The notes under the pieces are model-generated. The model saw nothing but the letters and a program-made list of their open reading frames with translations. It was not told where the DNA came from and made no database searches. The position numbers were made by a program, and so were the translations under genes. From sequence record OZ346160.1: a DNA stretch of 51,691 nucleotides. One strand, written 5' to 3'. The stretch is from a phage. Below, one piece after another: positions 1 to 15,442 of this stretch (position 1 is the stretch's first letter; every line of letters begins with the position of its first letter).

Positions 1-1569
1 ATGATCATATGGGAAGATTTGACGGCGGCGCAAAAGCGAGCCATTAAAGAAATCAGTGAGCATTCATTCGAAAAGATGATCAGAATCTGGTTCCAATTAT
101 TGCAGGGGCAGAAATTCCAGAGCAACTGGCATTTTAGCTTATTGTGCAGTGAGGTAGAGAAGATCATCAATGGAGAGTCGCAGAATGTGATTTTCAACAT
201 TACGCCAGGTAGCGGCAAGACTGAGATTTTCTCGATCCACATGTCACCCTACGCGTCATTGAAAAGCCGGAAAGTGAGAAACCTTAACCTTTCGTTTAGT
301 GATGGCCTTGTCCAGCAAAACAGCAACCGGATAAAGGAGATTATCGGTTCTCCTGAGTGGCAAGAGCTATGGCCTGGAAAACTGGCAAAGGCGAGCGCTA
401 AAGATCTGATAGTCACCGAAGGCGGCAAGGTTAAATTGCAAGTTAACTCACGTTCTATTGGCGGCCAGGTAACAGGTTTGCGTGGCGGCTATATGGATGA
501 TGGTTTTACTGGTATGCTGGTTCTTGACGATCCAGACAAGCCGGATGATATGCTTTCTAAGGTCAAGCGCGAGGCTATTCACATGCGGTTAAAAAACACA
601 GTGCGATCGCGTCGAATGAAAGACACCACGCCAATTGTTATGGTGCAACAGCGACTACACGTTAATGATTCCACCTGGTTCATGCTTAATGGCGGGATGG
701 GTGGTATTGAGTTTAAAGTCGTGAGCATTCCGGCGCTGGTTACGAAAGAATACCGCGAAACGCTTCCTGATTGGTTGAAGCCTGAATTTGATCGTGATGT
801 GCTGTCAAGTAAGCCAGTGATGATAGATGGCGTCGCTCATTATTCATTTTGGCCTGCGAAGGAAAGCGCGGAGGAGTTGCTTGCATTGCGCAATGCAGAT
901 CCTTACACGTTTGCCAGTCAATACCAACAGCAACCAATCGCGCTTGGCGGGAACGTGTTTAAAACAGAGTGGTTCCAGTATTACGGCAGCGGCGAAAAGT
1001 GCGCACTACCAAAACCGGATCGCTTTGAATACACATTTATTACTGGAGATACCGCGCAGAAGGCCGGAGAGCTTAACGACTATTCAGTTTTTTGTTATTG
1101 GGGGATGTATAAGAATCGCGTTTACTTCATTGATGGCATTCGCGGAAAGTGGGAAGCGCCGGATCTTGAATTAAATTTTATTGCCTTCGTTAACCAGTGC
1201 TGGAAGCGCAATAAGGAGTGTGGCAGCTTGCGACGTATCCACATTGAGGATAAGGCCAGCGGCACTGGTTTGATTCAGGGGGCCAAAAAGAAGATCCCGA
1301 TTGATATAAATCCCGTTCAGCGAAGCAATGACAAGGTAACGCGAGCAATGGACGCCGCGCCAGTGATGAGGGCCGGACGTGTGGCGCTGCCAGAAAATCA
1401 CCCCATGCTGCCTGAGATACTGGCAGAGGTTGCAGCATTCACTTTTGATGATTCTCATCCCCATGATGATATTGTCGATAATATAGTTGATGCTGTTAAC
1501 GTCGAAATGAACTTGGCAGATGATCCGGTGGCAAGGATGAAAAAGCTGGCTGGTCTACGCAATAAATAG
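1..1569 (+). CDS. terL: terminase large subunit
   Basis: 522-aa ORF beginning at base 1, directly upstream of portal gene; size and position fit a packaging ATPase/nuclease; family call from recall, no search. Confidence 0.75.
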   Translation: MIIWEDLTAAQKRAIKEISEHSFEKMIRIWFQLLQGQKFQSNWHFSLLCSEVEKIINGESQNVIFNITPGSGKTEIFSIHMSPYASLKSRKVRNLNLSFSDGLVQQNSNRIKEIIGSPEWQELWPGKLAKASAKDLIVTEGGKVKLQVNSRSIGGQVTGLRGGYMDDGFTGMLVLDDPDKPDDMLSKVKREAIHMRLKNTVRSRRMKDTTPIVMVQQRLHVNDSTWFMLNGGMGGIEFKVVSIPALVTKEYRETLPDWLKPEFDRDVLSSKPVMIDGVAHYSFWPAKESAEELLALRNADPYTFASQYQQQPIALGGNVFKTEWFQYYGSGEKCALPKPDRFEYTFITGDTAQKAGELNDYSVFCYWGMYKNRVYFIDGIRGKWEAPDLELNFIAFVNQCWKRNKECGSLRRIHIEDKASGTGLIQGAKKKIPIDINPVQRSNDKVTRAMDAAPVMRAGRVALPENHPMLPEILAEVAAFTFDDSHPHDDIVDNIVDAVNVEMNLADDPVARMKKLAGLRNK

Positions 1570-1595
1570 CACTAATTGCTAAAAAGTTATATAAT
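1565..1595 (+). promoter_or_regulatory. conserved intergenic cassette copy (variant AATAGCACTAATTGCTAAAAAG + TATAAT)
   Basis: Motif overlaps terL stop TAG; TATAAT at 1590..1595; followed by hairpin and T-run. Confidence 0.5.
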
Positions 1596-1596
1596 C

Positions 1597-1625
1597 AAGG
1601 CTGGATTTTTCCAGCCTTTTTTATT
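1597..1625 (+). terminator. rho-independent terminator/attenuator between terL and portal
   Basis: AAGGCTGG-attttt-CCAGCCTT followed by T-run. Confidence 0.55.
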
Positions 1626-1639
1626 ATGGAGATTTGACG

Positions 1640-2932
1640 ATGAGTGAAAAAACAAGGCTAGTTAAGGCCGATGGATACAACGAGATTTTCAAGGGCAGCA
1701 AGGGCAATGGGCGTGTGGAGTTGCCTTTCTTTATGCAAGGGTTCGAATACACCACGCACGCTGATTTTTACATTCGCGACGGCCTAGCAAAACGAATCAT
1801 CGACGTTGTTCCAGAAGAAATGGTGACGCCTGGATTTAATATTGACGGCGTGGAAGACGAGGAAAGTTTTAGATCTTTGTGGGATGAGAAGCGACTAAAC
1901 GATAAAATCATTGATGCGCTTTGCTGGTCGCGTCTTTTTGGTGGCGCTGCAATCGTGGCAATCGTTCAGGATGGCAGGGCATTAAAGTCACCTGTAGCGC
2001 CTGGTGCAATCCTTGAAGATGTTCGCGTTTACGATCGCTTTCAGGTTCGCGTAGAAAAGCGAGAAACCAATCCGCGCAAGGTGCGATATGGTGAGCCATT
2101 GATTTACACCATTACACCTGGTGCTGACCTGCCAGAATACCAGGTTCACTATTCGCGAGTCTGTATTATCGACGGTGAGCGGCTACCAAATCAGCGACGT
2201 CAGTCAAATGATGGTTGGGGTGAGTCGATCCTGAATAAGCGACTTGTTGAGGCCATTTGTGATTATAACTACTGCGAAAACTTAGCAACTCAATTGTTGC
2301 GACGTAAGCAACAGGCGGTATGGAAAGCTAAAGGTCTTGCTGATCTTTGTGATGATGATGATGGTGTTAACGCCGCACGTTTGCGCCTTGCTCAAGTTGA
2401 TGATGAGGGTGGAGTTGGCCGTGCGATCGGCATTGATGCGGAAGATGAGGAATATGATGTTTTAAATTCTGATATTTCCGGCGTCGATTCATTTCTGGAA
2501 AAGAAGATGGATCGCATTGTATCTCTTTCCGGTATCCATGAAATCATCCTCAAAAACAAGAACGTTGGCGGTGTTAGCGCGAGCCAAAACACGGCGCTTG
2601 AAACCTTCTACAAGCTGATCGACAGAAAGCGAAAGGAAGAATACAAACCAATCCTTGAATTTCTGATCCCGTTCCTGATTCAAGAACAAGAATGGAGTAT
2701 TCAGTTTGCGCCGTTAAGCGTTCCAAGCGAAAAGGACCAGGCCGAGATCTTGAACAAGAATATTGATTCTTTGAGCAAGGCTATTGACGGTCAATTCATG
2801 GATACAGAGGAGGCGCGCGACACATTGCGAGCCATTGCGCCTAACGTTAAACTAAAAGACGGCAATAACATTAAATTACCTGAGCAGGACGTAGAGCCGG
2901 AGCCAGGAGCAACCGAGGGTAGCAATCAATGA
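1640..2932 (+). CDS. portal protein
   Basis: 430-aa ORF after terL; GGAG RBS about 8 nt upstream of ATG at 1640 (track start 1634 is a TTG); stop overlaps next start (ATGA). Confidence 0.75.
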   Translation: MSEKTRLVKADGYNEIFKGSKGNGRVELPFFMQGFEYTTHADFYIRDGLAKRIIDVVPEEMVTPGFNIDGVEDEESFRSLWDEKRLNDKIIDALCWSRLFGGAAIVAIVQDGRALKSPVAPGAILEDVRVYDRFQVRVEKRETNPRKVRYGEPLIYTITPGADLPEYQVHYSRVCIIDGERLPNQRRQSNDGWGESILNKRLVEAICDYNYCENLATQLLRRKQQAVWKAKGLADLCDDDDGVNAARLRLAQVDDEGGVGRAIGIDAEDEEYDVLNSDISGVDSFLEKKMDRIVSLSGIHEIILKNKNVGGVSASQNTALETFYKLIDRKRKEEYKPILEFLIPFLIQEQEWSIQFAPLSVPSEKDQAEILNKNIDSLSKAIDGQFMDTEEARDTLRAIAPNVKLKDGNNIKLPEQDVEPEPGATEGSNQ

Positions 2933-3684
2933 TAGTGAAAGGCGTCGTTAAACAATGGCGCTTTCCTGAAGCAAGCGAGCGGCAATTGCGCCGCTCAATT
3001 CAGGAGGCGATAAGGGATCTTGTTGTGCTGATGCGCAGCAAAACAAAGGAAATGAAATTTGACGCGGACACCGAAGAAATCAACGCCGCAGAGGATGAGA
3101 TTAGTAGCTTCGCGTTAAAGCTAATAGCTGGCATCGCCGCATCACTTCCGGCTATCGGCCTTGCTGTTTATAAATTCAACGCAAAGCAATTTATTAACGT
3201 AGCGAAATCAACGGGAGGTAAGTCAAATTCCGCTGTTATCATTCTTATGGCTATTGGGGCCAATGCGAATGAGAGTTGGTATAGGACGCTATACGGTCAA
3301 TGGCATGACATGACGATCGCATCTCTTCAAAAGCTATTTGGAAACATCGTGTCTGACTGGTCAACCAATATTAGATCGGCAAACTTTCGCGGAATGAGAG
3401 ATAGTCAGGTTAATGAATTGGCTGGTAAGAGATTTGCAGTGTATAGCTCTTGGGGTAAGACAAGGGCTGAAAATATCATAGGCGCTTGGAATAGTAGACT
3501 CATGCGCCAGCGTCTTTATGATGCAAAAGTAACTCATTATTTTTGGCATGGTATGCTTGATGACAGAGAACGATTGCAGCATGTACAATGGGAGGGTAAG
3601 CGCATTGCGCTAGATTCTGAACATGATTTTCCTGGTGAGCCTTTCGGTTGTCGTTGTTGGGCCATACCAGATTGGAACAGTTAA
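2929..3684 (+). CDS. minor head / head morphogenesis protein
   Basis: 251 aa, translationally coupled to portal; position between portal and scaffold. Confidence 0.5.
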   Translation: MIVKGVVKQWRFPEASERQLRRSIQEAIRDLVVLMRSKTKEMKFDADTEEINAAEDEISSFALKLIAGIAASLPAIGLAVYKFNAKQFINVAKSTGGKSNSAVIILMAIGANANESWYRTLYGQWHDMTIASLQKLFGNIVSDWSTNIRSANFRGMRDSQVNELAGKRFAVYSSWGKTRAENIIGAWNSRLMRQRLYDAKVTHYFWHGMLDDRERLQHVQWEGKRIALDSEHDFPGEPFGCRCWAIPDWNS

Positions 3685-3694
3685 GAGGTGTTAA

Positions 3695-4810
3695 ATGAAG
3701 GCAAAACAAAGATTTGATAGCGCCAAAGTAAAGGCGCACTTTGATGATAACGGGTTTTTAGTTGATCGCCCTATCGTGGCGCGAATTGGTTTACAAGTCT
3801 ATCAGACTCCTTTCGGTGAGCGCAGAGAATTTCGTCCGGCGTCCGAAGTATTCAAGGCCGACTCGCTCGCCACCTTCGCAGGTAAGCCAGTCACGGTTGG
3901 TCACGTCACGGTAACGCCAGAAAACGCCGAAAAGGTTGTGGTTGGTTCTTGTGCTGGCGCTGGCGTGCCGAACGGGATCGGCGTAGAGGTTCCGTTAAGC
4001 ATTTACTCAAAACGAGCAATCGAAAGCGCGAAGAAGCGAGACACGGCGGAAATTTCAGTTGGTTATACATCGGTTGATATTGATAAACCAGGCTGGGGCA
4101 ATAATAAAACTGGTGAGTACGTTTTCGATGAGGATGTTAGCGAAGACTGGAAACCTGATTCTCCTGATTGGGTTAAGTTTGATGCAATCCAGACTGAAAT
4201 CAAGGTAAACCACATCGCGTTAGTTTTCCGAGGTCGAGCTGGCATTGCAAAATTAAACCTTGATAGCCAGCAAGATTTTCCGTATAGTGACGACGTTATT
4301 AACAACAAAGAGGATCAAATCATGACTGTAAAAATTAAACTGGATGGCGCTGTAGAGTTTGACGTGCCAAAAGCAGTTGCGGATCACATTGAATCACTGA
4401 AAGCTGATGCAAAAGCACAGAAAGAAAAGGCGGACGGCCTGGAAGCTGAGCGAGACGCACTGCAAACCAAAGTAGATGGCATTCAGGATCAGATTGATGC
4501 CGCAGTCAAGAAGGCCAAAGAAGATGCCGAGCAATATGCTCAATTAGTGGCAGACGCTAAAGAGTTAGGCATCAAGTGCGACGGCCTGGATGCGAAAGCA
4601 ATCAAGGTTGCATACATCAAAGAAGTTATGGGTAATGACGTTTCCGATAAAACTGATGCCTATATCGAAACAGCTTTCGACATCGCCAAAAACTCTGATA
4701 AAATGGCGGCGCAGCGTAAGAGCATTAAAGGTGACTCTTTCGCGAATGAAAAGCAGGATGACGCAGGTTCTAAGCTGAATCCTAACGCTCGTTTTGAGAA
4801 ACTGAAATAA
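3695..4810 (+). CDS. scaffolding protein (possible prohead protease-scaffold, DUF2213-like)
   Basis: 371 aa with globular N-terminal half and charged coiled-coil C-terminal half (KADAKAQKEKADGLEAERDALQTK); GAGGTG RBS; precedes decoration and capsid genes. Confidence 0.5.
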   Translation: MKAKQRFDSAKVKAHFDDNGFLVDRPIVARIGLQVYQTPFGERREFRPASEVFKADSLATFAGKPVTVGHVTVTPENAEKVVVGSCAGAGVPNGIGVEVPLSIYSKRAIESAKKRDTAEISVGYTSVDIDKPGWGNNKTGEYVFDEDVSEDWKPDSPDWVKFDAIQTEIKVNHIALVFRGRAGIAKLNLDSQQDFPYSDDVINNKEDQIMTVKIKLDGAVEFDVPKAVADHIESLKADAKAQKEKADGLEAERDALQTKVDGIQDQIDAAVKKAKEDAEQYAQLVADAKELGIKCDGLDAKAIKVAYIKEVMGNDVSDKTDAYIETAFDIAKNSDKMAAQRKSIKGDSFANEKQDDAGSKLNPNARFEKLK

Positions 4811-4822
4811 GGAGTAATTAAA

Positions 4823-5302
4823 ATGGCTAAAATTGGAGCAAGTTATTTTGACACTATGGCGATCGCACTACCTGGCATGGTTGCTGACACTTCTAAATAC
4901 AACATTGACGGCGCTTGCGTCGTTAGTGAAGGTGGAGAAATTCTTGTTGGTACTGCCGTGCAGGTTGTCGCAGTGCAAGCGGTTGAAGGTCATAAACTTA
5001 TTAAGCGCATGGAAACAGGAAAATATCCTTACGGTGTGGCAATTCGTTCTCACTGGCAAACTGTTAACTCTCAAGGACAGATGGTTTATGAAGAAGGAAG
5101 CGCAATCAACGTAATGACATCTGGCAGAGTTTGGATTCTTTCAAAGTCCAGCGCAGCACCAGTCTTCGGCACTGCGGTTAAACTTGATGTTGATGGTCAT
5201 GAAAAATCAGACGGCACAATCACTACTAACTGGACCTACGCTGGCGGATTTGTCAAATATAAAGATATTAATCTTGTAGAAGTTCAGTTGCAGCAACTGT
5301 AA
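4823..5302 (+). CDS. head decoration-like protein (DUF2190-like)
   Basis: 159 aa; paralogous to N-terminal 150 aa of next ORF (shared YNIDGACV, SHGRVW, AGGFVK motifs); AGGAG RBS; followed by terminator. Confidence 0.5.
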   Translation: MAKIGASYFDTMAIALPGMVADTSKYNIDGACVVSEGGEILVGTAVQVVAVQAVEGHKLIKRMETGKYPYGVAIRSHWQTVNSQGQMVYEEGSAINVMTSGRVWILSKSSAAPVFGTAVKLDVDGHEKSDGTITTNWTYAGGFVKYKDINLVEVQLQQL

Positions 5303-5317
5303 TTAGAGTTTAATATT

Positions 5318-5349
5318 GGGGCCATCCTTTTGGATGGTCCTTTTTTTTA
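5318..5349 (+). terminator. rho-independent terminator
   Basis: GGCCATCC-tttt-GGATGGTCC followed by T9. Confidence 0.6.
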
Positions 5350-5362
5350 TGGAGAAATTATT

Positions 5363-6376
5363 ATGGCTTATGAAAATTTAATGCTGAACTATGCATGTCC
5401 TGGCAATCTCTCTGATACTTCAACCTATAACATTGATGGCGCTTGTGTTGCTCAAGGTGATATTGAGTTTGGATCAGCGGTTCGGGTTGTCGGAATAGTG
5501 GATGGAATGAGGGTTGTGACGGCGCTTTCTGATGGTGAAACTCCTTACGGCATCGCTTTTCGTTCACAATATGAGCACCTGAGCGGTAAAATTCTCGACG
5601 GAGAGGTGTGTAACGTCGTTTCTCACGGTCGGGTGTGGGCGCTTACTTCTCTTAGTGAAGCCCCGAAATCATTCTCAAAACTAAAAATCGGTGTTGGAGG
5701 AGTAGTAACTGGCGTAGATGATTATGTTGGCTGGACCTTTGCTGGTGGCTTTGTTAAGCACGAAGACGGTCACATTATTGAGGTTCAGGTGAAGCAAAAT
5801 GCTCTCATCGTTCCACCCCCTCCGCCTCCTGTGGTGCTGGTAGAGTCTGCAACAATTAACACTGACAAGGAGAGTCCGCAGCCAAACAATGCTCCCGTAA
5901 AATGCAGTATCACAGTAGAGCCTGGCAACGCCACCGATAAAACTGGTGTTTGGTCTGTTGATGCTGTAAACATTGCGACTATTGATGCCGATACCGGTAT
6001 TCTAACTCCTGTTGGTGGTGATGCATTCGGTAGTGTAAACGTAAGTTGGACGGCTAACGATGCAAGCAAGACTAAGGCCACGATTGTTTATCAATTCGAA
6101 AAAGCTGTTGTTAGCGTCGCTAGTGCAACCGTAAGCCTTGAGAAAAATTCTGCAATTGTTGGTGAAACCGTTCAGGCGAGCGTTGTCGTTGCTCCAGAAG
6201 ATGCTACCAATAAATCCGGTTCTTGGTCTTTGTCAAGTGGTGATTTTGCATCTGTAGATCCTGGTACTGGACTAGTAACTACTATCGCCGCTGGCGAGGT
6301 TGATGTTATCTGGACCGCTGCTGATGGTTCTGGCGTTAAAGGTCAGCAAAGACTAACCATTACCGATCCTGAATAA
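5363..6376 (+). CDS. head decoration-like protein with poly-Pro linker and two Ig-like (Big_2-type) C-terminal domains
   Basis: Start taken at MAYENL (GGAG RBS 9 nt upstream); N-terminal domain paralogous to 4823..5302; PPPPPP linker; two similar repeats of about 90 aa rich in T/S/V. Confidence 0.5.
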   Translation: MAYENLMLNYACPGNLSDTSTYNIDGACVAQGDIEFGSAVRVVGIVDGMRVVTALSDGETPYGIAFRSQYEHLSGKILDGEVCNVVSHGRVWALTSLSEAPKSFSKLKIGVGGVVTGVDDYVGWTFAGGFVKHEDGHIIEVQVKQNALIVPPPPPPVVLVESATINTDKESPQPNNAPVKCSITVEPGNATDKTGVWSVDAVNIATIDADTGILTPVGGDAFGSVNVSWTANDASKTKATIVYQFEKAVVSVASATVSLEKNSAIVGETVQASVVVAPEDATNKSGSWSLSSGDFASVDPGTGLVTTIAAGEVDVIWTAADGSGVKGQQRLTITDPE

Positions 6377-6395
6377 CATAAAAACGCTTTGACGC

Positions 6396-6414
6396 TTTAA
6401 CAAAAAGTGCTATC
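6396..6414 (+). promoter_or_regulatory. conserved motif, inverted orientation, embedded in sigma70-like promoter upstream of major capsid gene
   Basis: TTTAACAAAAAGTGCTAT lies between TTGACG (6388..6393) and TATCAT (6410..6415), 16-nt spacer. Confidence 0.45.
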
Positions 6415-6457
6415 ATCTAGGCCGTTACATTTAACGGCCTTTTATGGAGGAAACAAA

Positions 6458-7429
6458 ATGGCTAAAAAATACGATGAATTAGATGCTACTATTGTAGCAA
6501 ATCATTTGCAGATTCAGGGTGTTAAGTCCGACGCTTCTGATATGGGTATTTGGACCGCTCAAGAGCTACACAAGATCCGCTCTAACGCATACGAGAAAGA
6601 GTATCCGGCAGGTTCCGCGCTTCGCGTATTCCCTGTAACAAACGAGCTTTCTGATACTGACAAGACTTTCGAATATCAGACTTTTGATAAGGTTGGCTAC
6701 GCGAAAATTATCGCCGACTACACCGATGATCTGCCAACTGTGGACGCGCTGATGACTTCTGAGTTTGGCAAAGTGTTCCGCCTGGGTAACGCTTATCTGA
6801 TCTCCATTGATGAGATTAAAGCAGGTCAGCGAACTGGCAAGAGCCTGTCAACTCGCAAGGCTAACGCTGCGCAAAATGCGCATGATCAGATGATTAACTT
6901 CCTGGTGTTCAAAGGTTCCAAGCCTCATAAGATCGTTTCCGTTTTCGATCATCCTAACCTTACGAAAATTGCATCCAAAGGCTGGATGAGCAATGACGGC
7001 AATACCAAGTTCCCACAGGTAGCAAGCGATGAACTGGAGGCTGCAATCGAAACGATCGAGGAAGTGACCAAAGGCCAGCACCGCGCGACCAACATCCTGA
7101 TCCCGCCGTCCATGCGTAAAGTCCTAACGGTTCGAATGGAAAATACCACTGAAAGTTATCTTGAATACTTTCAGAAGCAAAACGGCGGTATCACTATCGA
7201 CTCTATCGCAGAGCTTGAGGATATTGACGGCAAAGGTACGAAAGGTTGCTTGGTTTACGAAAAAGATCCAATGAACATGAGCATTGAGATTCCAGAAGCG
7301 TTTAACATGCTTCCGGCGCAGCCAAAAGACCTGCATTTCAAGGTTCCTTGCACTTCCAAGTGTACTGGCCTTACGATTTATCGTCCGTTTACGATGGTGC
7401 TTATTACTGGCTTGAAAAAAGCTGAGTAA
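6458..7429 (+). CDS. major capsid protein
   Basis: 323 aa from MAKKYDELD with GGAGG RBS; follows scaffold and decoration genes; strong terminator downstream. Confidence 0.7.
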   Translation: MAKKYDELDATIVANHLQIQGVKSDASDMGIWTAQELHKIRSNAYEKEYPAGSALRVFPVTNELSDTDKTFEYQTFDKVGYAKIIADYTDDLPTVDALMTSEFGKVFRLGNAYLISIDEIKAGQRTGKSLSTRKANAAQNAHDQMINFLVFKGSKPHKIVSVFDHPNLTKIASKGWMSNDGNTKFPQVASDELEAAIETIEEVTKGQHRATNILIPPSMRKVLTVRMENTTESYLEYFQKQNGGITIDSIAELEDIDGKGTKGCLVYEKDPMNMSIEIPEAFNMLPAQPKDLHFKVPCTSKCTGLTIYRPFTMVLITGLKKAE

Positions 7430-7440
7430 TTAGATAACAT

Positions 7441-7468
7441 GGGGAGCCTTAAGGGTTCCCCTTTTTTA
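7441..7468 (+). terminator. rho-independent terminator after major capsid gene
   Basis: GGGGAGCC-ttaa-GGGTTCCCC followed by TTTTTTA. Confidence 0.6.
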
Positions 7469-7485
7469 TTTATGGAGTACACAAA

Positions 7486-7752
7486 ATGAGCAAAAATTTA
7501 AAACTTAAAGTAACTGGCGTTTGCATGATTATTATGGACGGTAAGCGTTATCATCCTGGTGATGAAATTGAAATTGAATCTGAACGCATTAATGATTCCG
7601 CAGTTGAATACCTGATCGCTCGCGGTGATGTGGAAGTTAAAGACAATTCCGAAATTAACGAGCAAATCAAGGCGAAAGCGGAGAAGAAGCGCAAAAAAGA
7701 TCCTACCGAGGGTAAGAGCCGCAAAGAGCTAGAGGACGGCGGCGAATATTAA
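7486..7752 (+). CDS. hypothetical protein (head module)
   Basis: 88-aa ORF with GGAG RBS; lysine-rich C-terminus. Confidence 0.45.
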
Positions 7753-7798
7753 TAATTGGGGCGCTTATGCGCCCTTTGTCACATCTGGAGAAAACAAA

Positions 7799-8218
7799 AT
7801 GGTAGATGAATTTTACACAGACGCTGAAATCATGCAGCAAATCGTAAAGTTAGCGCCGCCAATGCAACAAGTTGATCCCGATTTAATTGTGGCATGGATT
7901 GAGCTTGCTAAAGAGTTTGTTTGCAAAAAGCGGTTTAAAAACTCATACCCGAAAGCGGTTGCGCTTTACACTCTTCACCTTATGACCTTAGACGGGGCAA
8001 TGAAACAGGAAGGTGAAAGCGTAGAAAGCTATTCCCGCCGCGTTGCCTCGTTCACTCTGACTGGTGAGTTTAGTCAGACGTTTGATCGAATTTCTTCCGA
8101 TACAAGCGGAAAGCAGATCCGACAAACTCCGTGGGGCAAAATGTACGAAGTGTTAAACCGTAAGCACGGTGGCGGCTTTGGCCTTGTGACTGGATTGCGC
8201 CGGAGATGCTGCCGATGA
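7799..8218 (+). CDS. head-tail connector / adaptor protein (putative)
   Basis: 139 aa; position between capsid and tail genes. Confidence 0.4.
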
Positions 8219-8586
8219 ACTACAATGAGATTGCAAGAATGGCTACGGCTGGGATTAACTTTTTCAGCGACGCTAACGGTATGTTTAAGTGCATCACGCA
8301 GCAGGGAGGGGTTGAGATTATCGGAGGAGAGGAAGTTACCAAGCCGGAGATTTCAGTGATGATAAAGGGGCTTGTTAGATCTCCGAGGACTAGAGAGGTT
8401 GACGGTGAAACAATCCGAGTAACCGACAAGTTGGGGATATTCACCAATGAAACTGAGATCAAAAATGGTTATCAGATTGAAATTGATGGCGAACGTTATG
8501 TTGTCGTTGAAGCAAGACCAGTCAGGCAGACTAACATCACGGCGGCTTATCGTCCGATATTAAGGAGGATTGCTGTGCATGGCTGA
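8206..8586 (+). CDS. head closure / head-tail joining protein (putative)
   Basis: 126 aa; overlaps neighbours in coupled arrangement. Confidence 0.4.
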
Positions 8587-9022
8587 TAATTATAAGATCA
8601 GGGAATTTCACGGTGATATAAGCAGGTGGATTGATTCAGTAAGCAGCGGCCTTGTTGATTGCGTTGAAATGTTCGCGACAAACGTCCACGAGGATCTTGT
8701 AAATCGCTCGCCAGTTGATACGGGCCGATATAAAGCCAACTGGCAGATAACAGCAAACAAGCCGCCGCTATATGCGCTCAACCAATACGATCGCGATGGT
8801 AGTAAAACCATTGCAGAAGGCAAGCGAGCAATATATGCAATCATGCGTGGCGGTGGCGCGGTGCGGTCAATCTATTTTTCAAACATGCTCATTTACGCCA
8901 ACGCGCTTGAATACGGTCATTCAAAACAAGCGCCGTCCGGCGTACTTGGAATCGTGGCGGTAAAGCTGCGATCTTATATGGCTAAGGCAATAAAGGATTC
9001 GAGGGCAAAAAATGCACTATGA
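8579..9022 (+). CDS. tail component, HK97 gp10-like (putative)
   Basis: Start taken at MADNYK; size and position typical. Confidence 0.4.
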   Translation: MADNYKIREFHGDISRWIDSVSSGLVDCVEMFATNVHEDLVNRSPVDTGRYKANWQITANKPPLYALNQYDRDGSKTIAEGKRAIYAIMRGGGAVRSIYFSNMLIYANALEYGHSKQAPSGVLGIVAVKLRSYMAKAIKDSRAKNAL

Positions 9023-9413
9023 TTTAATGTTGGCGGCAAGAAAGGCGCTGGCGGCTGAATATGAATCACGATTTAAGATAGCATATGAAAACGTTGATTT
9101 TGTGCCGCCTGGAGATGGTTCTATGTGGTTAAAATTTGACTACATGGAAGCAGACACGGATCGCATATCTCTTGATAGAAAATGTGTTTCTTATATCGGT
9201 TTGGTTCAGGTTGGAATTGTCATTCCTCCTGGCGGCGGCACTGATAAAGCGCGTTTGCTGGCTAAAGAGATTGCGAGATTTTTCTATGATGGTAGAATGA
9301 TTGAAACTGGCTATATTAGCGAGGGGGCAAACGTCCACACATTACTAAAAAGTGAAACAGGTTGGTTATTGCCGATCCGTTTCAGTGTTAGGCTTGATAC
9401 AAAGGAGGAATAA
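9012..9413 (+). CDS. tail terminator / tail completion protein (putative)
   Basis: 133 aa immediately upstream of major tail protein. Confidence 0.4.
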   Translation: MHYDLMLAARKALAAEYESRFKIAYENVDFVPPGDGSMWLKFDYMEADTDRISLDRKCVSYIGLVQVGIVIPPGGGTDKARLLAKEIARFFYDGRMIETGYISEGANVHTLLKSETGWLLPIRFSVRLDTKEE

Positions 9414-9415
9414 TC

Positions 9416-10078
9416 ATGCACTTGCCTAATGGTTCTCAAATTTTCATCGGCGTTAATATGGGTGAGCCTATTCAGGCTACGGCTATTTCAAATGCTGATG
9501 ATCCTGTTTTTACGACTGCAAACACTCAAAGCATCAAAAAAGGCGCTTATGTTCTTATTGAAACATCTTCCTGGGGCAAACTTGTTAGTCGCGTGCTTCG
9601 AGTTAAGGAGGTATCAGATGATGCAAGCGTTACTCTTGAGGGTGTAAGCACGAAAGACACCAATGTTTTTCCGGCTGGTTCTAATACAGCAACTTTCCGA
9701 GAGGTGAAATCTTGGGTAGAGATTCCTTGCGTACAGGATCTTGCGCAGGACGGCGGCGAACAACAGTATTACACTTATCAGTGTTTGGCTGATGACCAGG
9801 AGCAGCAGTTACCGACCTATAAGAGCGCCGTTTCTCTTACCTACACTTTCGCGCATGAATATGATAACCCGATTTATCCGATCTTGCGCGAGGCTGAGGA
9901 ATCCGGCGACGTAACCGCTTTGCGTATGTACGTTCCGAAAGCTAAAGAGATGCGTTGCTGGGCTGGCGTATTGTCCTTTAATGACATTCCGCAAACCACT
10001 ATGAACGAAATGGAAACTGTTTCCCTTTCCGTATCTCTGAAAGGTCGATTTACGTTCTTATCTTCCGACATCAATTAA
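9416..10078 (+). CDS. major tail protein
   Basis: 220 aa; AGGAGG RBS; followed by strong terminator; precedes chaperone and tape measure genes. Confidence 0.6.
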   Translation: MHLPNGSQIFIGVNMGEPIQATAISNADDPVFTTANTQSIKKGAYVLIETSSWGKLVSRVLRVKEVSDDASVTLEGVSTKDTNVFPAGSNTATFREVKSWVEIPCVQDLAQDGGEQQYYTYQCLADDQEQQLPTYKSAVSLTYTFAHEYDNPIYPILREAEESGDVTALRMYVPKAKEMRCWAGVLSFNDIPQTTMNEMETVSLSVSLKGRFTFLSSDIN

Positions 10079-10081
10079 AAC

Positions 10082-10106
10082 AAGGGGCGTTGCGCCCCTT
10101 TTTTCA
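10082..10106 (+). terminator. rho-independent terminator after major tail gene
   Basis: AAGGGGCG-ttg-CGCCCCTT followed by T6. Confidence 0.65.
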
Positions 10107-14711: not shown

Positions 14712-15442
14712 TGATTAGTGCAAAAATTAAACTTGAAATAATGCAGCACGTTAAAGAGGAATACCCTAAAGAGGCTTGCGGCGTCATAACTCAAAAATCA
14801 CGGGTACAGAAATATCACCGCATAACCAACGTGCATGACGATCCAGAAAATCATTTTGAAATGGACGCCGTAGAATACGCTGAATCGCTCGACAAAGGCG
14901 AATTAATCGCGGTGGTGCATTCCCATTGCGGGGATGGTGCTAGTACGATACCGAGCGCGCACGACTCATGTATGTGCGATGAAATGGGTGTGTCGTGGAT
15001 TATAGTGTCATGGCCCGAAGGTGATATGAGAATTGTCGAGCCGCAGGAGAGGCCGCTTATCGGTCGCCCGTGGTCGCTTGGGTCGTTCGATTGCTGGGGT
15101 CTTATCATGGCGTGGCATAAACAGCACGGAGTAGTATTGAATGACTTCCGAAAGCCTTACGAGTGGTGGAAGTCAGAATATGGTGAAAATCTTTACCAAG
15201 ATAATTATTTGAAAGAGGGATTTGTTGAAACTAACGAGCCTCCAAAACCGGGTGATATGGTGATTATGCAACTATCATCTCCAGTCTGGAATCATGCGGG
15301 GATTTATTTGGGTAACAACCAGCTATTACATCATGCGTTTGGAAAGCTATCTCGCATCGACTTGTATTCTGGATGGTATCAGGAGCACACTGTAAAAATT
15401 TGTCGACATAAGGATCTGAAATATGACATTGAAAGTAATTAA
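14711..15442 (+). CDS. tail assembly protein (lambda K-like; JAB/MPN metalloprotease + NlpC/P60 domains)
   Basis: Start at MISAKI; JAMM-like motif HSHCGDGASTIPSAHD; C-terminal Cys/His region. Confidence 0.7.
   Translation: MISAKIKLEIMQHVKEEYPKEACGVITQKSRVQKYHRITNVHDDPENHFEMDAVEYAESLDKGELIAVVHSHCGDGASTIPSAHDSCMCDEMGVSWIIVSWPEGDMRIVEPQERPLIGRPWSLGSFDCWGLIMAWHKQHGVVLNDFRKPYEWWKSEYGENLYQDNYLKEGFVETNEPPKPGDMVIMQLSSPVWNHAGIYLGNNQLLHHAFGKLSRIDLYSGWYQEHTVKICRHKDLKYDIESN

Follow-up and report, generated by a model that had tools for sequence, protein, structure and literature searches.

The closest described relatives of the genes considered here belong to phage T1, the capsid of which carries two paralogous cement proteins, assembled as 80 homotrimers of gp49 and 60 heterotrimers composed of one gp48 and two gp49 subunits (Chen et al. 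2025, Viruses 17:351, PMC11945409). Both proteins adopt a beta-tulip fold and sit at threefold positions; the N-terminus of gp49 is lodged in the shell's inner surface, and residues 154-255 of gp48, i.e. a linker followed by an immunoglobulin-like (Ig) domain, are seen only as a weak protrusion in the density, their model being taken from AlphaFold3 (PMC11945409). That this arm aids adsorption was offered by the same authors as a suggestion alone (PMC11945409). Here we compare this system with two genes from a stretch of phage DNA of 51,691 nucleotides (nt) (sequence record OZ346160.1; hereafter the window), which looks like the complete genome of a T1-like siphophage. The two genes, the open reading frames (ORFs) 4823..5302 (cement 1) and 5363..6376 (cement 2), are adjacent paralogues that lie, as in T1, between the prohead protease gene and the major capsid gene.

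Several other described systems bear a partial resemblance to this locus. FCWL1 has the same two-protein arrangement, and its short protein and its gp29 of 255 amino acids (aa) match cement 1 and cement 2, respectively, except that gp29 carries one Ig domain only; the FCWL1 capsid and portal vertex are deposited as entries 9KMG and 9KMH, and the T1 capsid as 9KZJ, in the Protein Data Bank (PDB). Pam3 gp6 and E217 gp24 are the founders of the Pfam family PF22758 (Phage_cement, in full 'Structural cement protein (E217 gp24/Pam3 gp6)'), the threshold of which is passed by both cement 1 and cement 2, but each operates as a single homotrimeric cement protein with no paralogue, heterotrimer or Ig arm; in Pam3, 140 such homotrimers are present, and the contacts of gp6 with the capsid protein are made for the most part by its N-terminal loop (PMC9942802). 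Lambda gpD and TW1 gp56, to whose beta-tulip trimeric decoration fold the T1 authors likened gp48 and gp49 (PMC11945409), form homotrimers only. At the sequence level, neither the Pfam scan nor the search of the PDB with the cement proteins gave a match to the lambda gpD family. T4 Hoc and T5 pb10, for their part, bind the centres of hexamers as monomers, through unrelated capsid-binding domains. They combine a capsid-binding domain with one or more flexible, outward-pointing Ig-like domains, the number of which varies among relatives, and weak surface adhesion has been proposed for capsid Ig proteins of this type (PMC10385173, PMC5292684). Their likeness to cement 2 is best regarded as a functional analogy in which the anchor is not homologous: in the assembly considered here, the Ig arm would instead be borne by a single subunit within a cement trimer that sits at a quasi-threefold site.

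Cement 1 and cement 2 as T1-type cement proteins

Taken as a whole, the evidence is best explained if cement 1 and cement 2, as orthologues of T1 gp49 and gp48, cement the capsid in a T1-type two-component assembly with an Ig arm, a reading to which we give a probability of about 0.85. A first-pass annotation, made from the letters of the window, had picked out the two ORFs as tandem head-decoration-like genes with a common N-terminal domain, and this description holds: the N-terminal domains share 40% identity over 144 aa (E=3e-30), a likeness far beyond chance, and both ORFs are present with the ends then given, including the start of cement 2 at ATG 5363, which has GGAG 8 nt upstream and opens a protein whose N-terminus, MAYENLML, matches that of T1 gp48. 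TTG 5330, the start of cement 2 in a program-made ORF list, was ruled out, since this codon sits within a terminator stem (see below). In the Pfam scan, PF22758 was matched by cement 1 with E=3.2e-28 and 99.1 bits and by cement 2 with E=6.7e-16 and 59.2 bits (gathering cut-off 27), and PF23982 (XM1_gp53) also matches both proteins above its gathering threshold. The family at first proposed for the pair, DUF2190 (PF09956), gave no match for either protein in the profile search, even at E<=1, and was dropped in favour of these two.

The relationship to solved capsids is close. In the PDB sequence search, cement 1 matched over its full length the 158-aa 'cement protein II / decoration protein' of 9KMG, 9KMH and 9KZJ (E=7e-78), and residues 1-247 of cement 2 matched both the 255-aa T1 gp48 (chain 9kzj_H, deposited as 'BIG2 domain-containing protein'; E=9e-132) and the 255-aa FCWL1 'Decoration protein gp29' of 9KMH (E=1.3e-126). 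Identity to the T1 proteins is 77% for cement 1 (vs gp49) and, over 246 aa, 80% for cement 2 (vs gp48); in cement 2 it amounts to 87% in the N-terminal domain and 64% in the first Ig-like domain (Ig1), and the PPPPPP linker between them is identical. The genes also follow the T1 order, with the short cement gene after the protease gene, then the terminator, the long cement gene and the capsid gene, although the backbone is of a different subfamily, with a capsid protein 76% and a protease 61% identical to those of T1, and the first 13 residues of cement 1 are not T1-like. An AlphaFold2 model of cement 2, built with 30 homologues (mean predicted local distance difference test score, pLDDT, 88.7), comprises three all-beta domains at residues 2-143, 162-246 and 254-334 and a low-confidence linker at 144-160, where pLDDT is lowest at 148-151; both Ig-like domains are modelled as seven-strand beta domains with pLDDT >90, and the low predicted template modelling (pTM) score of 0.45 fits a beads-on-a-string arrangement. 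In Foldseek searches, the modelled N-terminal domain reached template modelling (TM) scores of 0.87 to T1 gp48 and 0.90 to FCWL1 gp29 (normalised to those chains), and the C-terminal domains matched LigA Big domains, the T5 pb6 Ig domain and Big_2-CBM56. A beta-tulip cement fold is accordingly predicted for cement 2 by the model, and for cement 1 by its 77% full-length identity to the solved gp49. The proposed head-decoration role is thus sustained by PF22758 together with the presence of close orthologues in the capsids of T1 and FCWL1 determined by cryo-electron microscopy (PMC11945409).

How would such a pair work on the virion? Cement 1 would form beta-tulip trimers at the threefold and quasi-threefold positions of a shell of triangulation number 7 (T=7), clamping neighbouring capsomers, with its N-terminal arm inserted into the shell, and cement 2 would stand in for one protomer in each of 60 quasi-threefold trimers that form a single class and are made up of one cement 2 and two cement 1 subunits. 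If T1 values hold, there would be about 360 copies of cement 1 and about 60 of cement 2, which would make the latter the minority subunit. A heterotrimer cannot sit on a strict threefold axis, so that the 60 sites must, we infer, be one of the two general-position classes; the portal-vertex entry 9KMH contains five gp29 chains, which hints that the heterotrimer sites ring the fivefold vertices. From these sites, cement 2 would project a flexible outward arm consisting of the hexaproline spacer and two Big_2 domains, and since T1 has one such domain in place of two, the arm should be longer here. Most likely the arm would bind carbohydrate on the surface of cells or mucus, weakly and in a reversible way. 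The solved structures supply, by homology, the family, the fold, the location in the virion, the trimer sites and the make-up of the heterotrimer (the 1:2 heterotrimer from the 77-88% identity of the trimer-forming domains to T1); the attenuating effect of the terminator, the length of the arm and its role in adhesion are what we infer beyond them.

Some considerations weigh against this two-component assembly or against parts of it. The heterotrimer would be carried over from T1 at 77-80% identity to a phage that is known from its sequence alone, and the Ig arm was not resolved in the T1 map (PMC11945409). In some relatives the second cement protein has no C-terminal extension at all (143-168 aa), which implies that the structural role can be filled without it. 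To our knowledge, none of the gp48-type proteins has a known ligand. Finally, T1-like genomes contain many intergenic terminators, and the one between the cement genes therefore need not be a dedicated stoichiometry device.

Could the two paralogues nevertheless be alternative decoration proteins, found on different particles or forming separate homo-oligomers at different sites? The first-pass annotation had leaned this way in suggesting 'alternative capsid surfaces', and two diverged paralogues (40% identity) with a terminator between them could in principle allow differential expression. However, the T1 orthologues co-assemble on every capsid, where gp48 is found only in mixed trimers with two gp49 (PMC11945409), and the FCWL1 entry 9KMH also contains both proteins. 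Orthologues that build one surface together, in 80 homotrimers and 60 heterotrimers, are not doing what the suggestion required, and we regard a separate deployment of the two proteins as very improbable. Still less credit can be given to the view that cement 2 is a scaffolding or toxin-like accessory protein rather than a virion protein; it owes its existence to the names 'SbcC-like scaffolding protein', 'zonula occludens toxin' and 'HtjA' carried by homologues in several GenBank records, but there is no Pfam support for scaffolding or toxin families, the N-terminal domain has the cement fold (TM 0.87-0.90), and both T1 gp48 and FCWL1 gp29 are modelled in capsid maps, by which this view is already refuted for the orthologues. 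The T1-type pair of cement proteins is thus the reading that we retain.

Names of this kind on cement homologues ('putative zonula occludens toxin', 'SbcC-like scaffolding protein', 'HtjA' and 'tail fiber protein', as in MN850634 tinuso, OK272483 JLBYU26, MN850620 atuna and OP087522 TR1) look like misannotations, given the solved T1 and FCWL1 capsids. Both cement proteins are 97-99% identical to deposited proteins, mostly labelled 'hypothetical'. The kind of protein and its molecular placement being already known from the T1 and FCWL1 structures, the finding as first stated is an ordinary one; its useful outcome is a correct annotation for genes called 'hypothetical', 'scaffolding protein', 'zonula occludens toxin' or 'HtjA'.

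The second Ig-like domain and probable exchange of the cement pair

Three features go beyond T1: the second Ig domain, which is a minority form, signs of cassette exchange, and a hairpin with a T-run that is kept between the two cement genes in 17 of 17 loci. As to the first, T1 gp48 (255 aa) carries one Ig domain and ends shortly after it, whereas the cement 2 gene adds 270 nt (6104-6373), the alignment with T1 resuming at the stop codon, and encodes a second Big_2 domain (Ig2) at the C-terminus of a 337-aa protein. Cement 2 therefore departs from the single-Big_2, 255-aa architecture of gp48 and is an architectural variant of the same protein. Big_2 (PF02368) matches it in two stretches (E=1.1e-15, 57.8 bits, cut-off 22.8; best stretch 252-324), and Ig1 and Ig2 are repeats of ~87-90 aa with 39% identity (E=3e-11); the six prolines and two Big_2-like repeats of ~90 aa that had been noticed in the translation are borne out by this two-stretch match together with the three-domain model. 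No further Big_2 domain or cement paralogue was found elsewhere in the genome.

How common is this form? Among 48 cement-type homologues in a large protein collection, most have ~255 aa and only a few 336-346 aa, and 15 records of a phage genome collection cover at least 80% of the 337-aa cement 2. The two-Ig forms are distributed over at least four backbones (the group of this phage, L084 with its near-T1 backbone, and the more distant L085 and L086), with a constant domain order and with Ig1 58-72% and Ig2 33-65% identical to the corresponding domains of cement 2. In other relatives the second cement paralogue either has no extension, as mentioned above, or has a different C-terminal domain of ~100 aa (250-269 aa in total). 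The pair of paralogues itself is present in all related loci with a capsid protein at least 77% identical; by contrast, Drexlerviridae with a capsid protein ~55% identical (L041-L082, IMG/VR contigs) have a single cement gene of ~170 aa between the protease and capsid genes, and a tblastn survey also returned Klebsiella phages with a single cement gene. This single-cement branch implies that the paralogue pair is confined to a T1/Warwickvirus-side clade (capsid protein at least 77% identical). Forms with zero, one and two Ig domains on otherwise near-identical capsids provide a natural series for testing capsid Ig arms and point to a tolerant display site, which, together with the swaps described next that spare the N-terminal arm, may have a modest interest for those who study phage structures or engineer phages.

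Outside the family, Ig2 comes closest to the C-terminal Ig domain that the tail tube protein (pb6) carries in T5-like phages, e.g. in DT57C (47-55% identity over ~66 aa), and it also resembles a protein of phage 011D5. The likeness to the tail tube Ig hints at an exchange of Ig domains between capsid and tail proteins of unrelated coliphages. Ig2 alone (90 aa) gave no match at E<=1e-6 in a collection of 5.8 billion proteins, probably because of the limits that the word index and the E-value set for so short a query.

The pair of cement genes also shows signs of behaving, as far as comparison of related genomes can tell, as an exchangeable recombination cassette. FritzSarasin, a phage of the same genus, encodes a protease 99.5% and a capsid protein 99.1% identical to those of the phage described here, but a cement 1 that is 52% and a cement 2 that is only 30% identical; the nucleotide identity between the two genomes is at least 96% on both flanks and 20-60% between ~4870 and ~6390. 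The relation to T1 is the reverse, with 77-87% nucleotide identity across the cement stretch vs 50-70% in the flanks. The left junction is exact: this phage and FritzSarasin are identical through 4861, in codon 13 of cement 1, and no longer match from 4862 onwards. On the right, the junction falls at ~6396, inside a promoter-like box of which T1 has a near-identical copy. Cement 1 is consequently chimeric, its residues 1-13 (MAKIGASYFDTMA; 4823-4861) being of the Warwickvirus type and identical to those of same-genus phages carrying a different cassette, and its residues 14-159 of the T1 type. The pattern recurs in four other pairs of loci with a common backbone (L015/L016, L017/L018, L028/L029 and T1/L084), in which the capsid proteins are 98-100%, residues 1-13 of cement 1 92-100%, the body of cement 1 58-82% and the N-terminal domain of cement 2 36-90% identical, and in which the length of cement 2 often differs (147/262, 266/146, 167/269 and 255/338 aa); L038, the capsid gene of which was extracted as 85 aa only, is left out of this comparison. 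As a separate observation, L084 (a contig from Logan SRR28809960) matches T1 (L083) at 98.6% in the protease and 98.1% in the capsid protein vs 83% and 81% in the two cement proteins, and its gp48 has the second Ig domain, which makes the cement pair a diversity hot-spot in the T1 backbone too.

Why should the first 13 codons be spared? Perhaps keeping the resident N-terminal arm is functionally required, given that the N-terminus of gp49 inserts into the T1 shell and that the N-terminal loop of Pam3 gp6 makes most of the capsid contacts; alternatively, the conserved 5' end of cement 1 may just supply recombination homology. One can go further and propose, tentatively and as a possibility short of an even chance, that the pair minus these 13 codons would be an insulated module between a terminator and a promoter, exchanged repeatedly among Drexlerviridae with near-identical capsid proteins in such a way that the left junction keeps the resident arm matched to the capsid while the exposed body and the Ig arm (zero, one or two domains) are replaced. 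If true, there would have to be selection for alteration of the capsid surface, be it for an adhesion niche or for escape from capsid-surface recognition, and one capsid lattice would have to accept cement trimers of only 30-50% identity. That cement pairs 30-50% identical serve capsid proteins 99% identical, with a junction sparing the capsid-inserting arm, offers a handle on which contacts specify the recognition between cement and capsid. In a limited literature search, cement-cassette exchange in T1-like phages was not found described, only general genomics papers being retrieved, and nor were the arm-sparing exchange, the series of forms with zero, one and two Ig domains or the framing by terminator and promoter.

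Two other histories have to be weighed against these. The low identity of the cement genes might reflect fast in-place divergence under diversifying selection with no exchange at all; the cement genes are indeed more diverged than the flanks in every backbone pair examined, and surface-exposed proteins often evolve fast. Yet defined junctions (4861/4862 and ~6396) mark an abrupt fall of identity, from at least 96% to 20-60%, the cassette is nearer to T1 (77-87% nucleotide identity) than its flanks are (50-70%), which amounts to phylogenetic incongruence, and synonymous sites would not reach 50% divergence with flanks still at 99%, so that divergence in place appears improbable and exchange of the cassette remains the preferred explanation. 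Hardly better is the prospect for Ig2 as a recent in-place tandem duplication of Ig1 with no separate function. The two domains are adjacent, belong to the same Pfam family and are detectably similar (39%, E=3e-11), but their coding segments have no significant DNA similarity (best 27 nt, E=0.008), the T5-like tail tube Ig domains (47-55% over ~66 aa) resemble Ig2 no less than Ig1 does, and two-Ig forms with the same domain order occur across at least four backbones with an Ig2 only 33-65% identical to that of cement 2 (Ig1, 58-72%). A recent duplication was rejected on the lack of a DNA-level repeat and an amino acid identity of only 39%; a spread of this kind, with a diverged Ig2, means that the addition is old or was acquired separately, and Ig2 is either an old duplication or a shuffled-in domain.

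Transcription signals around cement 2

An intrinsic-terminator-like hairpin separates the two cement genes. A terminator is annotated at the same place in T1 (rho-independent, between gp49 and gp48) and in vB_Eco_Sip, and a hairpin with a T-run occupies the intergenic space in all 17 representative two-paralogue loci, which belong to different cassette types. The stems differ in sequence (e.g. GGCGCTC/GAGCGCC, GGCCGGA/TCCGGCC and GGCACTC/GAGTGCC), and what is kept is the structure and not the sequence. Downstream of cement 2, a sigma-70-like promoter box (TTGNNCGTTTAACAAAAARTGCTATNNT) recurs in 16 of the 17 related loci and is near-identical in T1 (L083; with the hairpin that follows it, ~15060-15125); no second copy of it was found in the genome within 3 mismatches. 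A second hairpin follows, which is annotated as a terminator in vB_Eco_Sip and has equivalents in related loci.

Cement 2, lying after the terminator and before the promoter-like element of the capsid gene, would by this position be transcribed mainly by read-through and hence be expressed below its neighbours. A low expression predicted in this way fits the ~6:1 subunit ratio in T1 (360 gp49 : 60 gp48), the T1 copy numbers used for the comparison being 60 vs 360 and 415 for the neighbouring gene products. It may be added that the -10 element of the promoter-like box ends at 6416, so that a transcript starting from it would begin in the 5' arm of the 6420-6443 hairpin. On these grounds, this hairpin might stop read-through transcripts but not promoter-initiated ones.

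Head module and genome context

The coordinates of the features discussed are collected below. The head module occupies 1-10,100, all on the + strand, in the order large terminase, portal, Mu-F-like head morphogenesis protein, prohead protease/scaffold, cement 1, cement 2, major capsid protein, DUF7444 protein, and connector and tail genes. By analogy with T1, the major capsid protein would form the lattice bound by the cement trimers.

Table 1. Features of the cement locus and its flanks in OZ346160.1
Feature	Coordinates	Strand	Remarks
Prohead protease/scaffold, 371 aa	3695..4810	+	phrog_530 E=3e-109; 99.5% identical to FritzSarasin; left flank of cassette
Cement 1, 159 aa	4823..5302	+	Orthologue of T1 gp49; major trimeric beta-tulip cement subunit by homology
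Intrinsic-terminator-like hairpin and seven T	5318..5348	+	10-bp stem, 6 GC pairs, loop TTTT; between cement 1 and cement 2
Cement 2, 337 aa	5363..6376	+	Orthologue of T1 gp48; cement N-terminal domain, PPPPPP and two Big_2 Ig-like domains
Cement (beta-tulip) N-terminal domain, cement 2 residues 1-150	5363..5812	+	40% to cement 1; 87% to T1 gp48 N-terminal domain; Foldseek match to 9kzj_H
Hexaproline linker, cement 2 residues 151-156	5813..5830	+	Identical in T1 gp48
Ig-like domain 1 (Big_2), cement 2 residues ~161-247	5843..6103	+	Common to T1 gp48, 64% identity
Ig-like domain 2 (Big_2), cement 2 residues 248-337	6104..6373	+	Not in T1 gp48; 39% identical to Ig1
Sigma-70-like promoter box TTGACG-N16-TATCAT, TG before -10	6389..6416	+	Upstream of major capsid gene; holds right cassette junction
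Second hairpin (GGCCGTTA-CATT-TAACGGCC) then TTTT	6420..6443	+	Between promoter box and capsid ribosome-binding site; read from sequence
Major capsid protein, 323 aa	6458..7429	+	Pfam PF09950 E=1.2e-53, phrog_264; 99.1% identical to FritzSarasin, 76% to T1 gp47

Over 3695-7429, the nucleotide identity of the window is 98.5% with Escherichia phage Kalemo and 97-98% with NorthRox, vB_Eco_mar001J1, vB_EcoS-95, swan01 and vB_Eco_Sip; the records of vB_Eco_Sip and FritzSarasin place this group in Drexlerviridae, Tempevirinae, Warwickvirus. Directly 3' of the capsid gene lies a further, strong terminator-like hairpin at 7441-7461 (9-bp stem, 6 GC pairs, T-run), and it is followed at 7486-7752 by the gene for an 88-aa DUF7444 / phrog_2716 protein with no assigned function, the position of which is kept in T1 (gp46) and in the related loci. 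In the whole genome, no tRNA genes were found by ARAGORN and no Rfam family at the gathering threshold. The GC content ranges from 39 to 47% across the genome, and the coding strand changes at ~24-28 kb and again at ~34-42 kb, a layout to be expected of a T1-like genome.

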